A DNA stretch of 64,000 nucleotides from an uncultured Candidatus Saccharibacteria bacterium (GTDB taxonomy: Bacteria > Patescibacteriota > Doudnabacteria > UBA920). The stretch covers positions 10,671 to 74,670 of the forward strand of contig CAYSUI010000005.1 of assembly GCA_964434195.1 (NCBI GenBank). Direction: 5' to 3'. The notes below the pieces were generated by a model that was given only the letters and a program-made list of their open reading frames with translations, was not told the DNA's origin and made no database searches. Positions within the stretch are counted from its first letter, which is position 1; the number at the start of each line of letters is the position of its first letter. A program made the position numbers and the translations under genes. This document shows, piece by piece, positions 20,970 to 58,570 of the stretch.

Positions 20970-21605
20970 CCCCAGCACGATTGCAGATTCTAAGTGCAGT
21001 TTCGTCGATTTTCGATGGCCTAGTCGAAGGCGTCCCCAGCCCCAGCTCGATTGCAGATTCTGTGGAGATTTTCAAAACTGTCAAAATTTAGCACGATTGC
21101 AGATTTTGTATGCAGTTTCGTCGATTTTCGATAGCCTAGTCGGAGGCGTCCTCAGTCTCAGCCCGATTGCAGATTCTGGAGGTTATTTTTGTGCAAATGC
21201 GAGTACCGAACGGAGGCGACCTACAGTCCCAGCACGATTGCAGATTTTGAAGAGATTTTCCAAATTATCGTAATTTAGCTCGATTGTATATTTTGAGTGG
21301 ATTTTTGTGACTCTTGATAGCACCTGGCTTTGCCAGTGCTAGCTCAAGTCGATTTACGAGCACCGGAACGGAGGCGTCCCCAGTCTCAGCTCGATTGCAG
21401 ATTTTGAGGAGATTTTCCAAATTATCGTAATTTAGCTCGATTGTATATTTTGAGTGGATTTTTGTGACTCTTGATAGCACCTGGCTTTGCCAGTGCTAGC
21501 TCAAGTCGATTTACGAGCACTGGAACGGAGGCGTCCGTGCTGGGACGGTGAAGTGAGGAGCGGAGCAAATCGGCAAAAAGCCGCCAAAATAGACGATCCC
21601 CTGTT
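20970..21605. repeat. Non-coding degenerate tandem repeat array (8 units starting CGATTGCAGATT/CGATTGTATATT; last two roughly 157-bp units near-identical)
   Basis: Repeat units identified by eye; the ORFs on the track here (21265-21480, 21422-21649) share identical C-termini because they lie in repeat copies. Confidence 0.75.
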
Positions 21606-41869: not shown

Positions 41870-41914
41870 AGGAAAGAGTGAGTCATGAGAGGGAAAACCA
41901 TGTTTTCCCTCTTA
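41870..41914 (+). repeat. 45-nt repeat: purine-rich SD (GGAAAGAGTGAGT) + ATG + perfect hairpin AGAGGGAAAA-ccatg-TTTTCCCTCT; copy A at the infB start
   Basis: Near-identical copy at 53317-53361. Confidence 0.7.
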
Positions 41915-43849
41915 TATTACTTTATGAATCTATCCTCCCTTTCAGAACAACTAAATTTGTCCATTCAGGAACTTCGCGATAAAGCTAACGCAAAGGGTTT
42001 TCGCATATCCCCAAGAGCAAACAAGATAGATAACCACCTCGCAAAGGAAATAATAGAAGCCCTACAAGTCAAAAAAACAGTTGAGAATAACACCCCAACA
42101 ACCCCAACCAGTATAAACCTCCCTCCATTCATTAAGGTCAGGGAATTTGCAGATTTGTTGAAAAAACCCGTGACCGAGGTCATTAAAGTGCTCATTCAGA
42201 ATGGAGTCATGGCTACTATCAACGAAGAGGTAGACTATGAAACAGCCGCTATCGTTGCTCAAGATCTAGGTTTCGAAGTCTCTACTCAGGTAAATAATGA
42301 CGAAGAAACTTATGGCTTAGGTTTCCTTCAACAAGTTATAACTTCTGAAACAGAAGGGAATTTACAACCCAGATCACCTATAGTAGCCGTAATGGGACAC
42401 GTAGATCACGGTAAAACCACCTTATTAGACGCAATCCGAAGAACCAAAGTAGCGGAAGGTGAATCAGGCGGTATTACTCAACATATTGGAGCTTATCAAG
42501 TTAAGCATAACGGTAAAAATGTTACTTTCTTAGACACACCTGGACACGAAGCTTTCTCAGAAATGAGAGCCAGAGGCGCTAATGTAACAGATATCATTAT
42601 TCTGGTTGTAGCGGCCGATGATGGCGTAAGACCACAAACAGTTGAGGTTATTAACAGAGCAAAATTCACCAATACCCCCATTATTGTTGCCATAAACAAG
42701 ATCGACAAAGAAAATGCTAACCCAATGAGGGTCAAACAGGAATTAGCAGAATATGGCATTTTAACCGAAGAATGGGGAGGCAAAACTATTGCGGTAGAAA
42801 TTTCAGCTAAACAAAACAAAGGAATAGATGATTTACTTGAAATGGTCCTTCTAACAGCAGAAATAGAAAACCTGAAGGCTAACCCAGAAGGTAAAACAGT
42901 GGGTACTGTAATTGAATCAGATACCGAACTCGGCTTAGGTGCTGTAGCAACCCTAATAGTCCAAAATGGGACCCTAAAAATTGGTGATATCTGTGTTGCT
43001 GGTAAAGCATACGGAAAAATAAAGAGTATGGAGAGCGATTCAGGTAAAAAGCTCAAAATAGCACCACCTAGCTCCCCGGTTAGAGTTTCGGGTCTTTCCA
43101 CCACCGCAGAAGCAGGAGATGTCCTACAAACAGTCGAAACTATCGAAAAAGCTAAACAAATTGCAGAAAGCGTAGCAAAAAGACAAAGAAGCCATACCTT
43201 AAAAGGTAAACACAGTCTCCAAGGAGATTTACAAAATAAGAGTCTCAATTTAATCATAAAAACCGACGTAGCTGGTAGCCTTGAAGCTATTAAACAATCT
43301 CTAGCCAAGTTAAAGAATGACGAAGTAAAAATTGAAATTCTAAATAGCGGTGTTGGAGAAGTAAATGAATCAGATGTTTTACTAGCAGAACCTTCTAAAG
43401 CCACCATTATAGCTTTTAGGGCCAAAACAAACCCCAAGGCAATAAATCTCGCTAAACAGAAAAAGGTTATAATCGATTCGTACGACGTTATTTACGAATT
43501 AATCGAGAACATTACTTCAGCAGTCGTCCAAATGTTCACCCCTGAATATGAAAAAGTAAGTTTTGGTAAAGGTGAGATATTAGCTATCTTTAGAACAGAA
43601 AAATCTGAAATGATAATTGGTGGAAAAGTAACAGAAGGCGAACTCAGAAAGAATAAGCGCATTTCCATAGAAAGAGCCGGAGTTCAAATTGGAACCGCCG
43701 AGATCCTAGAACTTCAACAAAGTAAGATCGCAACAAAAGAAGTTACTAAAGGAAATGAGTTTGGTATGAAACTAAAAACGAATATCAAACTTCAAACAGG
43801 AGATATTCTAGAAAGCTTCGAAGAAAACCTAAAACAAAAGAGTCTTTAA
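41885..43849 (+). CDS. infB: Translation initiation factor IF-2 (N-terminal 9 codons come from the repeat; real start could be further downstream)
   Basis: G-domain AVMGHVDHGKTTLLD, DTPGH, NKID; C-terminal beta-barrel domains. Confidence 0.9.
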   Translation: MRGKTMFSLLYYFMNLSSLSEQLNLSIQELRDKANAKGFRISPRANKIDNHLAKEIIEALQVKKTVENNTPTTPTSINLPPFIKVREFADLLKKPVTEVIKVLIQNGVMATINEEVDYETAAIVAQDLGFEVSTQVNNDEETYGLGFLQQVITSETEGNLQPRSPIVAVMGHVDHGKTTLLDAIRRTKVAEGESGGITQHIGAYQVKHNGKNVTFLDTPGHEAFSEMRARGANVTDIIILVVAADDGVRPQTVEVINRAKFTNTPIIVAINKIDKENANPMRVKQELAEYGILTEEWGGKTIAVEISAKQNKGIDDLLEMVLLTAEIENLKANPEGKTVGTVIESDTELGLGAVATLIVQNGTLKIGDICVAGKAYGKIKSMESDSGKKLKIAPPSSPVRVSGLSTTAEAGDVLQTVETIEKAKQIAESVAKRQRSHTLKGKHSLQGDLQNKSLNLIIKTDVAGSLEAIKQSLAKLKNDEVKIEILNSGVGEVNESDVLLAEPSKATIIAFRAKTNPKAINLAKQKKVIIDSYDVIYELIENITSAVVQMFTPEYEKVSFGKGEILAIFRTEKSEMIIGGKVTEGELRKNKRISIERAGVQIGTAEILELQQSKIATKEVTKGNEFGMKLKTNIKLQTGDILESFEENLKQKSL

Positions 43850-46026: not shown

Positions 46027-46167
46027 TTCACGAGCGTAGCAATGTGAATGCGCCAACCAAAAGTAGCTCGCTACTTTTGAAAGGGACAACAAGGTAAACG
46101 AAGTGTAGTCTTTATGAAGCGAAAGCGTAATAAAGACGTAACGCAGTGAGCCTTGGTTGGCCCGTGG
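46027..46167. ncRNA. E2: tRNA-associated structured repeat, copy 2, between tRNA-Phe and tRNA-Gly
   Basis: Aligns with E1/E4; hairpin 2 AAAAGTAGC-tcg-GCTACTTTT and hairpin 3 GTCTTTAT...ATAAAGAC show compensatory changes. Confidence 0.55.
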
Positions 46168-46244
46168 TGGTGCCTCGGCTCAGAATCGAACTGAGTACGC
46201 AAGCCTCTTCAGGGCTTCGCTCTACCAATGAGCTACCGAGGCGC
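46168..46244 (-). tRNA. tRNA-Phe (anticodon GAA), CCA encoded
   Basis: Anticodon stem AAGCC/GGCTT, loop CTGAAGA. Confidence 0.8.
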
Positions 46245-46358: not shown

Positions 46359-46385
46359 CTATATATATTATAACTGAGACTATGA

Positions 46386-46522
46386 TTCACGAGCGCAGCA
46401 ATGTGAATTCGCTACAAAATGTAACTCGTTACATTTTAAAGGGGCAACTTGGGGAACGTAGTGAAAGGTTTATGGAGCGATAGCGTAATAAACCTGCAAC
46501 GAAGAGAGCCAAGATTGACCCG
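46386..46522. ncRNA. E4: tRNA-associated structured repeat, copy 4, between tRNA-Leu(GAG) and tRNA-Val
   Basis: Aligns with E1 over the full length. Confidence 0.55.
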
Positions 46523-46607
46523 TGGTGCCCGAGGAGGGACTCGAACCCTCAAGCCTTACGGCATACGCACCTCAAGCGTACGCGTATACCAATTCCGCCA
46601 CCCGGGC
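46523..46607 (-). tRNA. tRNA-Leu (anticodon GAG), type II, CCA encoded
   Basis: Anticodon stem TACGC/GCGTA, loop TTGAGGT; long variable arm. Confidence 0.8.
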
Positions 46608-48109: not shown

Positions 48110-48394
48110 TTAATCTCCTCCCGAAAAATTTATTGTGAAAACCAAATAAAATAGATAACTAACGAATATTAATAAAATAATAACCACATGTAAAGTGGAC
48201 AACTAATTTATAATTTAAGAGTCCATTCCCATGGAAATGGGAATCCACACCCAGATTGATTTTTACGCCCTAATAAAGTAAAATTGAGTAACGAATTCCC
48301 CACTGACGTTGCACTTCTGCATTTAATAGCAGCAAAGCTGCGAGACGGGGGAAGCTTCGATCCGGGTTTCCCGGATGAAGGGGTGCTCTTGAAG

Positions 48395-48446
48395 GAATCA
48401 GGCTTCGCCTGTCCCTGCTCAAGTCGGCTACGCAAGCCCCTACCTA
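48395..48446. repeat. X1: REP-like hairpin module (CAGGCTTCGCCTG ... GCTCAAGTCGGCTACGCAAGCCCC) immediately 5' of tRNA-Cys; paralog of the insert at 56714-56792
   Basis: Aligns with CGAATCTGGCTCTGCCAGTTCGAGAGGCGACGCAAGCCCCC at the gyrA 3' scar. Confidence 0.45.
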
Positions 48447-48521
48447 GGTGCGTTGGCGAAGTGGTAACGCTGCGGTCTGCAAAACCGCCATGCGTGGGTT
48501 CGAATCCCACACGCACCTCCA
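48447..48521 (+). tRNA. tRNA-Cys (anticodon GCA), CCA encoded
   Basis: Acceptor GGTGCGT/ACGCACC, anticodon loop CTGCAAA, T-arm GTGGGTTCGAATCCCAC. Confidence 0.8.
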
Positions 48522-48537
48522 TGTGGGAGGTTATTCA

Positions 48538-48705
48538 GGATTCCCAAATTACTTGCTTACGTATGAGTTTATTTGAAAAACCCCGAAGAGGGGTTTTTCA
48601 AAAAACAAAGCAAGAAGCAGTTTGGGAAGAGGAGAACTTTATGGAAACTGCAGTTACTAGTTCTGCAACGAACTAGTAACGGAGGTTGGAATAAAGTATG
48701 ACGAG
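48538..48705 (+). ncRNA. Y1: roughly 165-nt structured element (long GAAGA-loop hairpin; SD GGGAAGAGGAGAA + 11-codon mini-ORF 48641-48676) between tRNA-Cys and its truncated copy
   Basis: Second copy at 56844-57009 with compensatory stem changes (CCCC/GGGG vs GCGC/GCGC; ACTAGTTC/GAACTAGT vs ATTAGTTT/AAACTAAT). Confidence 0.55.
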
Positions 48706-48771
48706 GCGAAGTGGTAACGCTGCGGTCTGCAAAACCGCCATTCGCGGGCTCGAATCCCGCTCGCGCCTCCA
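48706..48771 (+). pseudogene. 5'-truncated tRNA-Cys copy (D-arm to CCA; acceptor 5' strand absent) with compensatory T-stem/acceptor changes relative to the intact gene
   Basis: GCGAAGTGGTAACGCTGCGGTCTGCAAAACCGCCAT identical; T-stem GCGGG/CCCGC vs GTGGG/CCCAC; 3' acceptor TCGCGCC has no 5' partner upstream. Confidence 0.7.
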
Positions 48772-48859
48772 AAAAACAACAATCCTATTTGTTGTTTTTT
48801 AATTGGTATACGATAATAAATCTCTTGTGATTACGTTTACCTATTGATATAATTGTAAT

Positions 48860-49345
48860 ATGCCCAACAAAAGGAGATGGACAAATAAAGAATTGATTAA
48901 GGCTGTGAAAACATCTTATAGTCTCAGGCAAGTATTAATACTACTCGGACTACGGCCAACAGGTGGTAATTACGATCAACTAGCAAAATACATAAAAGAA
49001 CTAAATCTAAATATCACACATTTTAAGGGTAAGGGCTGGAATAAGGGTTTAACATATTTTCATCCTCGTCAGGAATTAAAAGATCTTCTTGTCAAAGGTG
49101 GAACTTCCCAAAGTTACAAATTAAAACTACGACTATTCCGAGAAAATCTTAAACCTCAACAATGCGAAGAGTGTGGGTGGGCAAAAAAATCACCTGATGG
49201 ACGCCTACCACTAGAACTTGAACACATAAATGGAGACAGGCACGATAATAGAATAGAAAACTTAAAAATTCTGTGTCCAAACTGCCATAGTTTAACTATT
49301 ACATATAGGGCTAGAAATAAAATCAAAAAATCTGCTACAATATGA
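48860..49345 (+). CDS. HNH-family endonuclease (stand-alone, 161 aa)
   Basis: CEECGW...LELEHINGDRHDNRIENLKILCPNCHS: canonical HNH with flanking Cys pairs. Confidence 0.8.
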   Translation: MPNKRRWTNKELIKAVKTSYSLRQVLILLGLRPTGGNYDQLAKYIKELNLNITHFKGKGWNKGLTYFHPRQELKDLLVKGGTSQSYKLKLRLFRENLKPQQCEECGWAKKSPDGRLPLELEHINGDRHDNRIENLKILCPNCHSLTITYRARNKIKKSATI

Positions 49346-49350
49346 ACCAT

Positions 49351-49436
49351 GCCCGAGTGGCGGAACTGGTATACGCACAACACTTAAAATGTTGCGTCCT
49401 ATGGAATTGAGGGTTCGAGTCCCTCCTCGGGCACCA
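49351..49436 (+). tRNA. tRNA-Leu (anticodon UAA), type II, CCA encoded; starts 6 nt after the HNH stop
   Basis: Acceptor GCCCGAG, anticodon stem CAACA/TGTTG, loop CTTAAAA, long variable arm. Confidence 0.8.
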
Positions 49437-49596
49437 CAAAAAACACGTTCATATATGTGAACGTGTTTTTTATTAATATTAACTAAAAATAAAGGGAATC
49501 AAACCTTCGCGCTAGCGAAATCTTTAGAAAGCTTAAGACATGCTCCGCTGGCTTAAGCGTTCGGCGCAAGCCTGCGAAGTCGCCGATATATAGACA

Positions 49597-49658
49597 TCCC
49601 TCCTCGGGCACCACAAAAAAACACGTTCTATATATGAACGTGTTTTTAAGTAATATAT
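49597..49658 (+). repeat. Direct repeat of the last 18 nt of tRNA-Leu(UAA) plus its terminator hairpin, 160 nt downstream of the original (att-like duplication flanking a 113-nt structured insert at 49481-49593)
   Basis: TCCCTCCTCGGGCACCAC + AAACACGTTC-tatatat-GAACGTGTTT duplicates 49419-49468. Confidence 0.7.
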
Positions 49659-53316: not shown

Positions 53317-53361
53317 CGGAAAGGGTGAGTAATGAGAGGGAAAACCATGTTTTCCCTCTCA
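53317..53361 (+). repeat. Copy B of the SD + ATG + hairpin repeat (GGAAAGGGTGAGTAATGAGAGGGAAAACCATGTTTTCCCTCT) just upstream of the 53363 ORF
   Basis: Near-identical to 41870-41914. Confidence 0.7.
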
Positions 53362-53362
53362 T

Positions 53363-53989
53363 ATGCATTTACAATTTTTCGGACTTTCAAGTTTCAAATT
53401 CACAACAAAAGAAGCAGTGGTAGTTACCGACCCCTTCGATAAATCGTCTGGTCTTACTCCACCAAGAGGTGGAGCAGATATAGTAATTCTCGCCGAAAAA
53501 GAAAACCCACTCTATTCAGAAATAAAAGGTATTACCGGTGAACCTTTCCATGCTTTCGACCCAGGAGAATACGACGTAAAAGGAGTAACAATAACCGGCA
53601 TCCCTTTAAAACAAGATAAGGGCTATGTAACGGCATTCCTAATAGAAAGTGAAGATATCAGAATTCTTAATTTAACTCACATTAAAGAATTCTCTATGAA
53701 ACAAGACGAACTAGAAGACTTGGGAGATATAGACATTCTCATCTTGCCCGTTGGTGGCCACTCTGTAATGGACGCTAGTACAGCAGCCAAAGTAGTAAAC
53801 CAAGTAGAACCCGCTCTTATTATTCCCAGCCACTACAGTATGGACGGACTAAAAACAGAAACCGATAAATTAGAAAAATTTGTTAAAGAAATGGGTGGTA
53901 AATCAGAAGAGACAGATAAAATAATCGTTAAAAAGAAAGACCTAAACCCAGAAATTTCCAAAGTTATGGTTCTCACGCCTATGAGATAA
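53363..53989 (+). CDS. MBL-fold-like hydrolase homolog lacking the HxHxDH metal motif
   Basis: UPF0173-like length and C-terminal ILILPVGGH...IIPSHY pattern; N-terminal His cluster absent. Confidence 0.3.
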   Translation: MHLQFFGLSSFKFTTKEAVVVTDPFDKSSGLTPPRGGADIVILAEKENPLYSEIKGITGEPFHAFDPGEYDVKGVTITGIPLKQDKGYVTAFLIESEDIRILNLTHIKEFSMKQDELEDLGDIDILILPVGGHSVMDASTAAKVVNQVEPALIIPSHYSMDGLKTETDKLEKFVKEMGGKSEETDKIIVKKKDLNPEISKVMVLTPMR

Positions 53990-54238: not shown

Positions 54239-56713
54239 ATGACCAACAAAGATAAAGAAATCGCAAAAACCGATGAATTCAACATCGGCACAGTCAAACC
54301 AAGAGACATTCAAACAGAAATGCAAGAATCTTACTTGGATTACGCAATGAGTGTTATCGTTAACCGCGCCCTCCCAGACATTAGAGACGGCCTTAAGCCA
54401 GTACACAGACGCATATTCTATGCTATGCACGAACTAGGACTACGCCATAACGCTAAATTCCGTAAATCTGCAGCTGTTGTTGGTGAAGTACTTGGTAAAT
54501 ACCACCCACACGGCGACCAAGCGGTTTACCAGTCCATGGTTCACATGGCCCAAGACTTCGCCATGCGTTACCCGCTTATAGACGGTCAAGGAAATTTCGG
54601 TTCTATGGATGGCGATGAAGCCGCAGCCATGCGTTATACAGAAGCCAGAATGGATTCTCTTGCAGAGGAACTCCTAACAGACCTAGACAAAGAAACCGTT
54701 GAATGGCGAGATAACTACGATGCCACAAGAAAAGAACCTTCTGTGCTCCCAGCAAAGCTTCCAAACCTTTTACTAAATGGAACTCTTGGCATCGCTGTTG
54801 GTATGGCCACAGACATACCCCCACACAACATAAGCGAAGTTATAGACGGCATCACAATGCTTATAGAAGACCCAGAGGTAACCGTTGAAGATCTCACTAC
54901 AGTAGTTAAAGGTCCAGATTTTCCTACCGGAGGAACAATCTACGATATCGCAAGTATAAGAAACGCATACGCTACAGGAAAAGGAAGCATAGTAATGCGC
55001 GGTAAAACCGAAATTGTAGAAACCAAAAGTGGCATGTTCCAAATCATCATCAACGAAATTCCGTATCGTGTGAACAAAGCCACAATGCTCGAAAGAATTG
55101 CCGACCTAGTTCGTGACAAAAAAATTGAAGGCATAAAAGATGTACGTGATGAATCCGACAAAGAGGGCGTTAGGGTCGTAATCGACTTAAAAAAAGAAAG
55201 TTTACCAAACAAAATACTCAATCAGTTATTCTCTTACACCCAGCTCCAAGAAACCTTTCACATGAACATGCTGGCGCTTATAGACGGACTAGAACCAAGG
55301 GTTCTAAACCTCAAAAGCATTCTGGAAGAATACATAAAACACAGACAAGTTGTTGTAAGAAGAAGAACGGAGTTCGATCTCAAAAAAGCAAAAGAACGAG
55401 CACACATTTTAGAGGGTTTAACTATTGCGCTAGACCACATAGACGAAGTCATAAACACCATAAGAAAGAGCGCAACAAAAGAAGAAGCCCACGCTAACTT
55501 AATGAAAAAGTTTAAGTTAAGCACTCTTCAAGCTCAAGCTATCCTAGATATGAGACTGCAAACACTCGCAGGTCTCGAAAGAAAGAAAATAGACGATGAG
55601 TTAAAAGAGAAAAGAAAACTTATCGCAGAACTGGAAGATATACTTAGCAAACCAAAGCGTATTCTCGCTATTATAAAAACCGAAATTGCTGAACTCAAAG
55701 AAAAATATGGCGACGAGAGACGTACTCAAATAGTTAAGTCCCCTGTTGGCACATTCTCTGTAGAAGACCTTATACCAGAAAACGAAAGCCTAATATCTTT
55801 CACTAAGAGTGGGTACATAAAACGTCTAGCTCCAGAAACCTACAAAGCCCAAGTTAGAGGAGGCAAGGGTGTCATAGGTACCGGACTAAAAGACGAAGAC
55901 GTCGTTGAGAAGTTAATTTCCGCCAATACTCACGACGAAATTCTCTTTTTCACCAATAAAGGGAGGGTATTTCTTACTAAAGTTTATGAACTCCCAGAAG
56001 GAAGCAGAACTAGTAAAGGACAAGCTCTGGTTAACTTCCTAGAAATGGGTACAGGCGAAACCGCTACAGCAATTCTGACCCTAAGCAAAAACGACTCAGT
56101 AAAATTCCTCGTAATGGCCACTAAGGGCGGGGTTATAAAAAAGGTTGCAAGAGAAGAATTCGCTAAAGTTAGAAGATCAGGTCTTATCGCCATAAACCTA
56201 AAAGACGGAGATGAACTAAAATGGGTAGAAGGCAGTAGCGGAACTGACGAGATCATTCTTGTATCAGAAAATGGAATGGCAATTCGTTTCAACGAAAAAG
56301 ACGTAAGAGCAATGGGCAGAGTATCCACCGGAGTAGGTGGCATGAGACTTAAAAAAGGTGATTGCCTAATATCCATGGATGTAATCGCTAAAACTGCAGA
56401 CCAAAAAAATCTTGAGGTTTTGGTAATAACAGAAAAAGGTCTAGGTAAAAAGAGCCCTATCTCAGATTATAAAACCCAAAAAAGAGCCGGTGGTGGTGTA
56501 AAGACCCTAAAAATTACTCCAAAGACAGGTAAAGCCGTTGCAATGAATATCGTTAACAACAAAGATGAAAACGACCTTGTAATTATCTCCAAGCAAGGCC
56601 AAACCCTAAGAACACCCCTAAACTCCATCTCCACCCTAGGCCGAGCCACCCAAGGCGTAAGAGTAATGAGATTAGACGATGGAGACTCAGTGGCTAGCGT
56701 AACGGTCATTTAA
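54239..56713 (+). CDS. gyrA: DNA gyrase subunit A
   Basis: Active-site region [10 protein letters not shown] with catalytic Tyr; QRDR-like HPHGD; C-terminal beta-pinwheel repeats. Confidence 0.92.
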
Positions 56714-56843
56714 TAGCGGCAAGGCCGCGAGAAGGGAGGCTCGAATCTGGCTCTGCCAGTTCGAGAGGCGACGCAAGCCCCCTTAGTAGCAAGTCATGAG
56801 ATTAGACGATGGCGATAGCGTAGCAAGCGTTACTGTCATTTAG
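56714..56843. repeat. Insertion scar after the gyrA stop: 79-nt REP-like hairpin module X2 (56714-56792) followed by a diverged 51-nt duplicate of the gyrA 3' end (56793-56843)
   Basis: gtcatgagattagacgatggcgatagcgtagcaagcgttactgtcatttag vs gyrA terminal gtaatgagattagacgatggagactcagtggctagcgtaacggtcatttaa (about 80% identity). Confidence 0.7.
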
Positions 56844-57009
56844 GGATCCTAAATTACTTGCTTACATATTAGTTTTAGAAAAAAGCGCGAAGAGCGCTTT
56901 TTTCTAAAACATGGAAAGAAGCAATTTGGGAAGAGGAGAACTTTATGGAGACTGCAGTAATTAGTTTTATATCAAACTAATTAGGGAAGTCGAAATAAAG
57001 TTGGACGAG
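56844..57009 (+). ncRNA. Y2: second copy of the 165-nt structured element with SD + 11-codon mini-ORF (56945-56980, METAVISFISN)
   Basis: Aligns with Y1 with compensatory stem changes. Confidence 0.55.
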
Positions 57010-57066
57010 CAAGTGTGACTGTTATCTAAAACCCTAACCATTATTAAATATAAAAATAAGCGACTC

Positions 57067-57435
57067 CTAAGCGGGGTCGCTTTCGTTTTCTACCAGTTCA
57101 AGAATTCTCCTCTCAATTGTTATAAGATTAACGTTTAAAGGGAAACAAAATTGAGGAATTTCGGGATATTTCATTTGAGATTCACGCCAACTCTTAAGTG
57201 ATATAGTAACACCAAAAGATTTCTCAAGCTTATCGGTCCAAATCGTAAAATCTTTACCCTCACCATCAGCAACCGAATGGGGCCTGTGTCTCTTGTATTT
57301 AGTTATATACCCTTTCACTTTAAGTTCTTCTAATAATTTCTCGACCTTAGACTCCAAATCTCTACCGAATTCGGAATATCTTTTAGATTTTCTTTCACGA
57401 TAAGCCTGAAAATCTCGTTTATTCTTCCAACCCAT
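57067..57435 (-). CDS. Hypothetical basic protein
   Basis: ORF only. Confidence 0.3.
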   Translation of the reverse strand: MGWKNKRDFQAYRERKSKRYSEFGRDLESKVEKLLEELKVKGYITKYKRHRPHSVADGEGKDFTIWTDKLEKSFGVTISLKSWRESQMKYPEIPQFCFPLNVNLITIERRILELVENESDPA

Positions 57436-57563
57436 ATTCCCTCCTTTACCCCCCCTATTTTAAATATAATAACCCCACTTATCCACTCTTTGCAAAAACA
57501 TTTAGCCTTTGCTATCTTTGCTTTTGGTACAATCCATATATTGTCCAAAAAAGGAGACGACAA

Positions 57564-58466
57564 ATGATAAAGAGGGAAAAACAAAGCACATTAAATTGGA
57601 CTGAAGGTCATAACCTTTTGCTCGAATGCGGGATTAACCCCGATAGTCTAGATCCCGATTTTCTATTGCGTTATCGCATCCAAACAGAGGAATCAGATAG
57701 CATATATGACGCAAAAATAACTATCGAGCTAGCCAAAGAATTCAATACGTATTTAGAAAACTGTGGGTTTGCAATCCTGGACGATACAGAACTCAGAGAA
57801 ATTTTTGTAGGCTTGCTACTTTCGGATATCGGTAAAACTGGACCAGAATTTCCAGAAGGCATGCAAGAAACTCAAAAAATTCAACAGATACGCGATTACT
57901 TAAAACTATATTCAATTAAAAATATACCGAATTACGAGTCAATTTCTCTAGAAGATTGTATCAGAAAATATTTCTCCGAAGACAAAGAAATGGTATCCAG
58001 ATTTAAGGCATACGGCGAAGACCCATCTCAGTCCATGAGAAATTTCACTAACCAACACGCACACCGAAGCTACAAAATAGCTTGCAATAGCGGAATTCCC
58101 GAGGACACAATCCCCGCAATTGCTCTTCATCACATATTTGAAGACCAAAATCCTGATAATCTAGTTGCTGAAGACGGCCACTTTACTCGCGACTGTGGTT
58201 GCAACACAGAATTTCACCGTCCTGAACTTCTAGTGGTTATACTAGACAAACTAAATGCCGTCCAAACAAGACTTACTCCCGGACAAACCGCTCCCAGTTG
58301 GCTGGAAGCCACACTTTTAGTAGAAGTTCAAATGGAAGAACGAATCGAAAGACTAACTCACCCCGAACTCAAAAAACTTCTAAAATCCATGTGGTATGAG
58401 GTCACACAAACACTTCATAGAATCGCGGCCTTCAAATCTCCCAGAGCCTACAGTACGAAAGCTTAA
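57564..58466 (+). CDS. Hypothetical protein, possibly divergent HD-domain (LLSDIGK in place of LLHDIGK)
   Basis: HDIG-like context with several conserved His (HAHRS, IALHHI); SD aaaaaggagacgacaaATG. Confidence 0.3.
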   Translation: MIKREKQSTLNWTEGHNLLLECGINPDSLDPDFLLRYRIQTEESDSIYDAKITIELAKEFNTYLENCGFAILDDTELREIFVGLLLSDIGKTGPEFPEGMQETQKIQQIRDYLKLYSIKNIPNYESISLEDCIRKYFSEDKEMVSRFKAYGEDPSQSMRNFTNQHAHRSYKIACNSGIPEDTIPAIALHHIFEDQNPDNLVAEDGHFTRDCGCNTEFHRPELLVVILDKLNAVQTRLTPGQTAPSWLEATLLVEVQMEERIERLTHPELKKLLKSMWYEVTQTLHRIAAFKSPRAYSTKA

Positions 58467-58570
58467 AAAACCGAGCAACTTAGTTGCTCATTTTATTTTC
58501 CTTCTTGACTTTTATACAAAAATTCAGCAAAATGCACGATTCGACTTAAAATAATTTCTTTGGAGGGAAC

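Follow-up and report, generated by a model that had tools for sequence, protein, structure and literature searches.

A TAG-bordered structured repeat lies between two silently diverged copies of the gyrA 3′ end in a Doudnabacteria-like genome

Two copies of the gyrA 3′ end surround a structured insert

We analysed a 64,000-nucleotide stretch of contig CAYSUI010000005.1 (hereafter the window), in which gyrA is followed by a short structured element, here called X, and then by a second copy of the gene's own 3′ end. The locus is laid out as follows.

54239–56713, plus strand: gyrA, 824 amino acids (aa), complete at a TAA stop; homologues carry PF00521 and PF03989
56662–56713, plus strand: T, the last 16 codons and stop of the working gyrA and first copy of the repeat (repeat finder, alignment and codon comparison)
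56714–56791, plus strand: X at gyrA (fold and consensus structure; covariance model 80.7 bits, E = 1.6 × 10−14)
56792–56843, plus strand: T′, second copy of the gyrA 3′ end, with its own TAG stop (repeat finder, alignment and codon comparison)
56844–57010, plus strand: Y, a repeat that follows the gyrA copy (repeat finder, D5 and D18)

An earlier note on this DNA had claimed that the last 51 nt of gyrA are repeated downstream at about 80% identity with many synonymous changes, and our comparison bears this out. Positions 56662–56712 and 56792–56842 match over 51 nt at 80% identity (repeat finder, family D15), and the local alignment score of 62 between T and T′ was reached in 0 of 300 shuffles. 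Both copies translate into the same 16 residues; nine codons differ, all nine of them synonymously, and the silent changes include a serine switch from TCA to AGC. When 10 random substitutions were simulated in the segment, a mean of 6.6 codons changed non-synonymously, and not one of 20,000 runs produced zero such codons. T′ is unreachable by translation from gyrA owing to in-frame TAG TAG stops at 56784–56789.

Assemblies from NCBI, JGI and Logan contain homologues 100% identical to the window GyrA, and its relatives at 74–78% identity are annotated as Candidatus Doudnabacteria; judging by sequence, the organism is a Candidatus Doudnabacteria-like member of the Patescibacteria. GyrA of the relatives stops at the same residue as that of the window, in ..VTVI* or ..AVI*. 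We considered programmed translational bypass of the T4 gene 60 type and rejected it, since GyrA is complete at its TAA by comparison with relatives and T′ repeats the same 16 residues behind stops.

The same T–X–T′ layout, with a few point differences, is found at gyrA in four other sister-lineage assemblies (L001, L002, L007 and L008) and is therefore real rather than an assembly artefact; sister-lineage assemblies are about 90–93% identical to the window overall at the nucleotide level. Relatives whose GyrA is 86%, 81% and about 78–79% identical have an empty site, in which gyrA runs directly into unrelated 3′ sequence. X, T′ and Y behind gyrA thus make up an insertion confined to this small clade.

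X belongs to a dispersed family of structured repeats

At gyrA, X occupies the 79-nt spacer between the two repeats, opening with a TAG (56714–56716) right behind the TAA stop and closing with TAGTAG (56784–56789) and CA. The nested hairpin that the earlier note had described in this insert is present at 56740–56765 (P2/P3, CTCGAA-T-CTGGC-TCT-GCCAG-TTCGAG) and is accompanied by two more, P1 at 56716–56728 and P4 at 56767–56779. The fold of X at gyrA is not better than that of shuffles (z = −1.6).

Members of the family are 70–190 nt long and non-coding, with three hairpins and a TAG at both borders, the TAG...TAG borders being visible at nearly all copies. Read from 5′ to 3′, X consists of TAG, a 5-bp hairpin with an AAG-type loop, GAGA, a long hairpin whose sequence varies but whose pairing is kept, a final 5-bp hairpin with a GACGCWA loop, and a short A/T-rich tail that ends in TAG; longer copies carry one or more added hairpins in the region of the long hairpin. 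Compensatory double changes affect 5 of the 19 consensus pairs, and the grpE copy shows additional covariation in P1 (GCCGC/GCGGC). P1 and P4 sit 2 and about 10 nt from the ends of the element. Comparing the left end (TAGCGGCAAGGCC..) with the reverse complement of the right end (CTATAGGGGCTTGCG..) in the listed copies revealed no terminal inverted repeats.

We searched for further copies with a degenerate pattern drawn from three of them, namely the two in the window and the copy at tRNA-Cys in L007. Within a collection of species-representative genomes the pattern matched 13 places, 10 in one metagenome-assembled genome (MAG) of the Patescibacteria (DASPKA01) and 3 in a sister-lineage MAG (CAYLIB01), and 8 metagenome contigs gave matches as well. 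A covariance model based on 12 copies added two more in DASPKA01 and others among the remaining loci retrieved, and over the 64-kb window it found exactly two, at gyrA and upstream of tRNA-Cys. At least 19 distinct sites were found, with copies of 70–190 nt; the window accounts for 2 copies, the sister-lineage MAG for 3 and another Patescibacteria MAG for at least 14. Their neighbours are housekeeping genes such as grpE, hrcA, atpG and a LemA-like gene, the last named from its C-terminal sequence. Given these dispersed copies and the lack of a mobility gene beside any copy examined, X behaves like a dispersed, non-autonomous element.

No Rfam family matches X, either in a gathering-score scan or in permissive scans of both window loci to E = 10, which returned only tRNAs and chance hits. 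Viral contigs contained no match for the X or Y patterns, which gives no link to phages, and a generic literature search returned nothing relevant to X. We conclude that X forms a new family within a familiar general class, the small non-autonomous structured repeats.

On metagenome contig Ga0114940, from a different sample, two X copies stand in direct tandem (L025 1187–1348), each preceded by ATGTAA.

X lies at stop codons and inside open frames

X is always in the sense orientation of the adjacent gene, and in many copies it begins right at a stop codon. Its own TAG serves as the stop of the gene in L011, L013, L016 and L018, and it directly follows a TAA in gyrA, L010 and L020. X also occurs within genes. 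The DASPKA01 gene for the ATP synthase gamma subunit (atpG; L015 3321–4220) is a continuous open reading frame (ORF) of 299 aa that translates through X as SGKAARGGGSIRALPVGGGDASPII, making X a 26-aa loop insert, part of which falls in a 14-residue alignment gap against the best solved gamma subunit. The same MAG has a 454-aa ORF (L014 472–1836), called as a thiamine pyrophosphate (TPP)-enzyme ORF, that holds two X copies in frame.

Gene ends are duplicated around X at eight sites

The arrangement seen at gyrA recurs. We found T–X–T′ at eight sites (gyrA, LemA in two lineages, grpE and four others), at each of which the observed alignment score was reached in 0 of 300 shuffles. The T/T′ pairs span 37–116 nt, at many genes cover the last 12 to 36 codons, and range from 100% to 78% identity, with 71/71 positions matching at L018, 37/38 at L009, 95% and 89% at others, about 80% at gyrA and at LemA in L017, and 78% at L011. 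Summed over the five pairs with clear frames, codon differences number 40 synonymous against 2 non-synonymous, with AGT/TCA serine and CGY/AGA arginine switches among the synonymous ones. This bias indicates that T′ was shaped as coding sequence, a pattern that free drift of an untranslated copy cannot give.

The edges of the duplications offer a further regularity. In L011, L016, L017 and grpE, T begins at an internal TAG of the gene, and at these four sites the stop-codon TAG forms the left border of X and a TAG matching the internal one its right border. In L018 and L016, T′ is followed by about the first 20 nt of another, truncated X, as unequal exchange between two X copies would predict.

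Within one MAG, the X copies at different genes are 90–95% alike, each of them paired with the end of its own gene. The same X is paired there with at least six different gene ends, one pair being identical over 71/71 positions, and many X copies have no duplication at all. Near-identical elements beside so many different gene ends argue that the duplicated segment is produced locally and is not carried by the element. The earlier idea that the second gyrA copy had been imported on a mobile element consequently survives in part: X does belong to a mobile family, the site in relatives is empty and the copy, differing only synonymously, bears the signature of a working gyrA end rather than of a decaying local duplicate, but the variety of gene ends speaks against a segment carried along with X.

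Diverged lineages exchange DNA at this locus

We next compared window positions 54239–58500 with L007 10001–14300 and observed mosaic divergence. Along gyrA, 150-nt bins alternate between 13–14% and about 1% divergence, all of it silent at the protein level. The block that contains the last ~220 nt of gyrA, X, T′, Y and the next gene (orf122) is 2% divergent, and the ORF at 57564–58466 is 19–32% divergent. We take this mosaic to mean that homologous exchange of kilobase-scale tracts between diverged lineages is routine here. T′ is identical in the window and L007; since the entire block is a recently exchanged 2% segment, this identity says nothing about constraint on T′.

Following the suggestion in the earlier note that related gyrA ends might reveal the donor of the copy, we compared the gyrA ends of five relatives and found none closer to T′ than T is. 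T and T′ are each other's nearest match, at 38/48 positions, and the tail they encode differs from that of every relative sampled, which suggests that the second allele came from a close sibling lineage. The earlier note had also reasoned that a copy most similar to this genome's own gyrA, once sequencing errors were set aside, would indicate simple local duplication. Here the outcome is ambiguous, as T′ is indeed nearest to T, yet every one of the 10 differences is silent and together they far exceed sequencing error.

A proposed model for insertion and duplication

The account that we favour, with a confidence only a little above even, is that X is a non-autonomous mobile element that targets TAG, that the stretch ending at the stop codon is duplicated when X inserts or when X copies recombine with one another, and that the silent divergence of the two gene ends arises through allele exchange. 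The family with its structure and TAG borders, the repeated duplications, the synonymous bias, the empty sites and the mosaic exchange between lineages are all seen directly in the data; the chemistry of insertion, the formation of the duplication and the identity of the foreign copy we infer as follows. X would land on TAG triplets, for which a TAG at or next to a stop codon would be a harmless landing place; this would explain why X often begins exactly at the stop and sometimes supplies the stop itself. An X landing in an open frame inside a gene might be accommodated as an additional loop of the protein, as seen in atpG. In the second outcome, the interval from an upstream point in the gene, often an internal TAG, to the stop-codon TAG would be duplicated on both sides of X. 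Staggered insertion at two TAGs could achieve this; so could unequal homologous recombination in which one X occupies the stop-codon TAG and its partner, on another chromosome copy or allele, the internal TAG. Because T still carries a stop, the gene would stay intact, and T′ would be left as an untranslated relic.

On this model, T and T′ would be two once-functional alleles from a recombining population, hence their purely synonymous divergence. Two routes could lead there. The duplication may form in place, with the gyrA–T side later replaced by the allele of another lineage through a right-hand crossover in the conserved X. Alternatively, recombination may join an X at the stop-codon TAG to one that an incoming allele carries at its internal TAG; T–X–T′ would then arise in one step, with T′ and the DNA downstream of it foreign. 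Both routes fit the data.

Several observations weigh against this account. An internal TAG is found at only four of the eight duplicated sites, two of which are the same gene (LemA) in two lineages, and gyrA itself has GTAAG rather than TAG at the 5′ edge of T. Target duplications of 37–116 nt are, to our knowledge, atypical of any bacterial transposase, being far longer than any transposase target duplication, and no transposase, integrase or reverse transcriptase was found beside any X copy examined (16 neighbouring ORFs scanned). Among the sequences recovered there was neither an allele with X only at the internal TAG nor a freshly X-free allele of the same lineage, so the recombination step is deduced rather than observed. 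Finally, X copies are 90–95% alike in one genome while T/T′ pairs drop to 78%; such uniform elements beside diverged gene ends fit allele exchange, but X could also be kept uniform by selection.

Alternative explanations

Among the competing explanations, the one that survives best is a self-rescuing element, which we consider possible but rather unlikely. A mobile unit made of X and a gene-end copy (T+X or X+T′) would enter the same gene in new lineages Campbell-style, within T, by homologous or site-specific recombination, bringing its own silently diverged version to replace the displaced gene end, much as some integrative elements restore the 3′ end of their target. This is essentially the idea of the earlier note. 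Direct repeats of the gene end stand on either side of the insert, as left and right attachment sites (attL/attR) would, the copies differ only silently, and LemA carries T–X–T′ in two different lineages. A similar layout is formed at tRNA-Leu by a structured module, Z, with one extra unit on the tRNA side in the sister lineage, and ATAGC.A stands directly before the copy at the right ends of both X and Z. On the other side stands the pairing of near-identical X copies with at least six different gene ends in one MAG, one of them matching at 71/71 positions, which points to copies made locally. In addition, a circle of 130–190 bp is implausible as a recombination substrate, no integrase was found among the ORFs scanned in the window or beside X copies, and many X copies lack a duplication.

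A further reading that we think improbable casts X as a new kind of selfish element whose spread through essential genes would be rendered harmless by a silently recoded spare gene end, either built in or generated together with the insertion. Such an element would be nature's parallel to engineered 'home-and-rescue' gene drives, and it might move between sibling lineages of DNA-scavenging Patescibacteria by recombination in the duplicated end.

X might instead be a functional RNA, such as a processing or stability element or a ribozyme, that selection keeps in the 3′ untranslated region of gyrA and in the leader of tRNA-Cys, with T′ as part of the transcript. The constant sense orientation, the hairpins conserved with covariation and the position of the tRNA-Cys copy downstream of a promoter-like site, from which it would be predicted to be transcribed, are all in keeping with such a role. 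We nevertheless regard it as quite unlikely, because X has no Rfam match even at E up to 10, folds no better than shuffled sequence at gyrA, lies inside coding sequences where it is read as protein, and is missing from close relatives; the duplications, moreover, would be left unexplained.

Plain local duplication, in which slippage or repair around the hairpin made a copy and the two then drifted apart, would account for T′ at gyrA being most similar to T of its own genome and for the identical or near-identical pairs at L018 and L009. An untranslated copy should, however, gain mostly changes of the non-synonymous type, contrary to the 40:2 ratio over five pairs and to the gyrA simulation, in which none of the 20,000 runs had as few non-synonymous codons as observed, and we consider this explanation very unlikely.

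Least credible of all is a guide-RNA or retroelement system in which X is the scaffold (TnpB/IscB omega-RNA-like, like a diversity-generating retroelement, or like a short interspersed nuclear element) and T′ the guide or template: a constant structured part followed by a variable target-matching part and the varying duplication length, as in target-primed reverse transcription, would suit it, but no tnpB, iscB or reverse transcriptase occurs among the nearby ORFs scanned, the T/T′ differences are not adenine-specific (A>C, C>T, G>A, T>A, TCA>AGC), T′ at 37–116 nt is far beyond known guide lengths, and short X copies measure only about 70 nt.

Relation to known systems

Rickettsia palindromic elements (RPEs) are structured repeats of ~100 nt scattered in a reduced genome, where they lie in frame inside housekeeping genes and are translated as an extra loop. 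X resembles them as a small structured dispersed repeat that sits in frame in atpG and the TPP-enzyme ORF; it differs in its TAG borders and in how strongly it is tied to stop codons, and a duplicated 3′ gene end on either side of the element has, as far as we know, not been described for RPEs.

X is likewise comparable with miniature inverted-repeat transposable elements (MITEs) and with derivatives of IS200/IS605 insertion sequences (PATEs, REP/REPIN) in that it is non-autonomous, multi-copy and shorter than 200 nt, has a hairpin close to either end and a short target triplet that is repeated, and is apparently mobilised in trans. Among the traits that characterise MITEs, it has the short target-site duplication (TAG on both sides of most copies), the multiple copies, the absence of coding capacity and a length under 300 nt, but it lacks their terminal inverted repeats. 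As for an IS200/IS605-type origin, neither a Y1 transposase nor a REP-associated tyrosine transposase (RAYT) was found among the 16 ORFs scanned next to X copies.

With integrative elements at the 3′ ends of tRNA and protein genes, including cis-mobilizable elements (CIMEs) and tycheposon remnants, the X and Z loci share flanking 3′-end direct repeats in the manner of attL/attR, an intact gene and, at tRNA-Leu, stacked units. Unlike integrase-type elements, X at gyrA is an insert of only 79 nt, its neighbouring ORFs contain no recombinase domain, and one X family is associated with many gene ends in one genome, for which a site-specific attachment site cannot account. X also differs from homing endonuclease cassettes, as it has no coding content and the gyrA copy has no associated endonuclease. 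We rejected a diversity-generating retroelement, since the differences are not confined to adenines and no reverse transcriptase was found nearby.

The unusual recurrent property of X is its position between two protein-constrained copies of a gene end. The genomes of Patescibacteria are tiny and generally considered to contain little mobile DNA; here we find a small element family at stop codons and inside or at essential genes (gyrA, grpE, atpG, LemA). The T′ relics may serve as dated fossils of alleles exchanged between lineages and so as a direct read-out of recombination in uncultured organisms. If duplication belongs to the insertion mechanism, X would represent a previously undescribed way into essential genes without killing the host. 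On the practical side, gene calling and assembly in these genomes can go astray at such duplicated ends and in-frame inserts.

The tRNA-Cys locus and repeat Y

The second X of the window lies in a cluster of features around tRNA-Cys.

48327–48446, plus strand: X, a long variant with an extra hairpin, flanked by TAG (covariance model 49.3 bits, E = 4.4 × 10−8)
48447–48521, plus strand: tRNA-Cys(GCA), working copy (tRNA and Rfam scans)
48530–48705, plus strand: Y repeat at tRNA-Cys (repeat finder)
48705–49345, plus strand: cassette of about 650 nt, absent from the sister lineage, with a partial tRNA-Cys, a terminator, a promoter and an HNH endonuclease ORF

The earlier note had seen the gyrA layout mirrored at this locus and had proposed a single X–copy–Y element family able to use either a tRNA or the gyrA 3′ end as attachment site. 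The X-like module and the homology of the two Y repeats (48530–48705 against 56835–57009, about 80% identity) are real, but the parallel ends there. X is a plain TAG-flanked insertion between a conserved promoter-like site (48256–48284) and the working tRNA-Cys, with no tRNA copy upstream of it; the partial tRNA-Cys belongs to the HNH cassette; and Y is a separate repeat. The sister lineage has the order X, tRNA-Cys, Y, tRNA-Leu with a single tRNA-Cys, and Y abuts tRNA-Leu (L007). Around the tRNA-Cys of a more distant relative, both X and Y are missing. With this single tRNA-Cys and with X paired with many gene ends elsewhere, the proposal of one family finds no support. Y was found at these two loci alone, both in the window and in the sister lineage; the rest of the DNA searched yielded no further copy. 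We also asked whether the sequence after Y at gyrA might be a decayed tRNA-Cys, or the leader before X at tRNA-Cys a decayed gyrA end, and rejected both, as the local alignments were no better than shuffles.

Y comprises a terminator-like hairpin, a long-range stem and a 10-bp hairpin that is kept paired through compensatory changes between the copies. Both copies contain a mini-ORF of 11 codons with a good ribosome-binding site (56957–56992 and 48653–48688; METAV..N*). Its ATG is lost in the tRNA-Cys copy of L007, where the overlapping hairpin of 10–11 bp stays paired via compensatory changes, which argues that the conserved feature of Y is the hairpin and not the peptide.

The cassette begins with the partial tRNA-Cys (48705–48771, family D11), which runs from position 9 to the 3′ end, is 91% identical to the working copy and has compensatory changes in the T stem. 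The HNH endonuclease ORF (48860–49345, 161 aa) has a promoter-like site ahead of it; a 161-aa ORF in L007, considered as an HNH homologue, is not one. With its diverged but structurally intact piece of the donor's tRNA-Cys, the segment at 48705–49345 looks like a free-standing homing-endonuclease cassette, and it indicates that this locus does receive foreign DNA carrying 'functional-looking' target fragments.

Module Z and other repeats in the window

At tRNA-Leu(UAA), in the interval 49420–49656, the last 17 nt of the gene and its terminator are repeated behind Z, which is a structured module of 117 nt. The corresponding region of L007 (5285–5700) has three copies and two Z modules, the extra unit being on the tRNA side. 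Besides the shared motif at the right ends, the covariance model of X matches Z weakly (E = 0.27), and the same process may act on both.

Other repeats accompany tRNA genes. Three modules of ~143 nt (8749–8891, 46027–46169 and 46385–46527), 71–87% alike, lie on the minus strand directly downstream of tRNA-Leu(TAG), tRNA-Phe and tRNA-Leu(GAG), and the 21-nt motif TTCACGAGCGCAGCAATGTGA occurs five times beside tRNA genes, at 8734, 46012, 46237, 46371 and 59974. The modules and the motif may be conserved spacers of tRNA operons or another repeat family. A cluster of direct repeats at 20974–21540 (and 4848–4882) has units of 116–187 nt, some of them 97% identical, with the common motif GTCGATTTTCGA..GGAGGCGTCC. 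Lastly, a 54-nt repeat with a GAGAGGGAAAACCATGTTTTCCCTCT hairpin is present at 41871–41924 and 53318–53371 with 89% identity, once just upstream of an ORF of the metallo-beta-lactamase fold near gyrA and once at a second locus.

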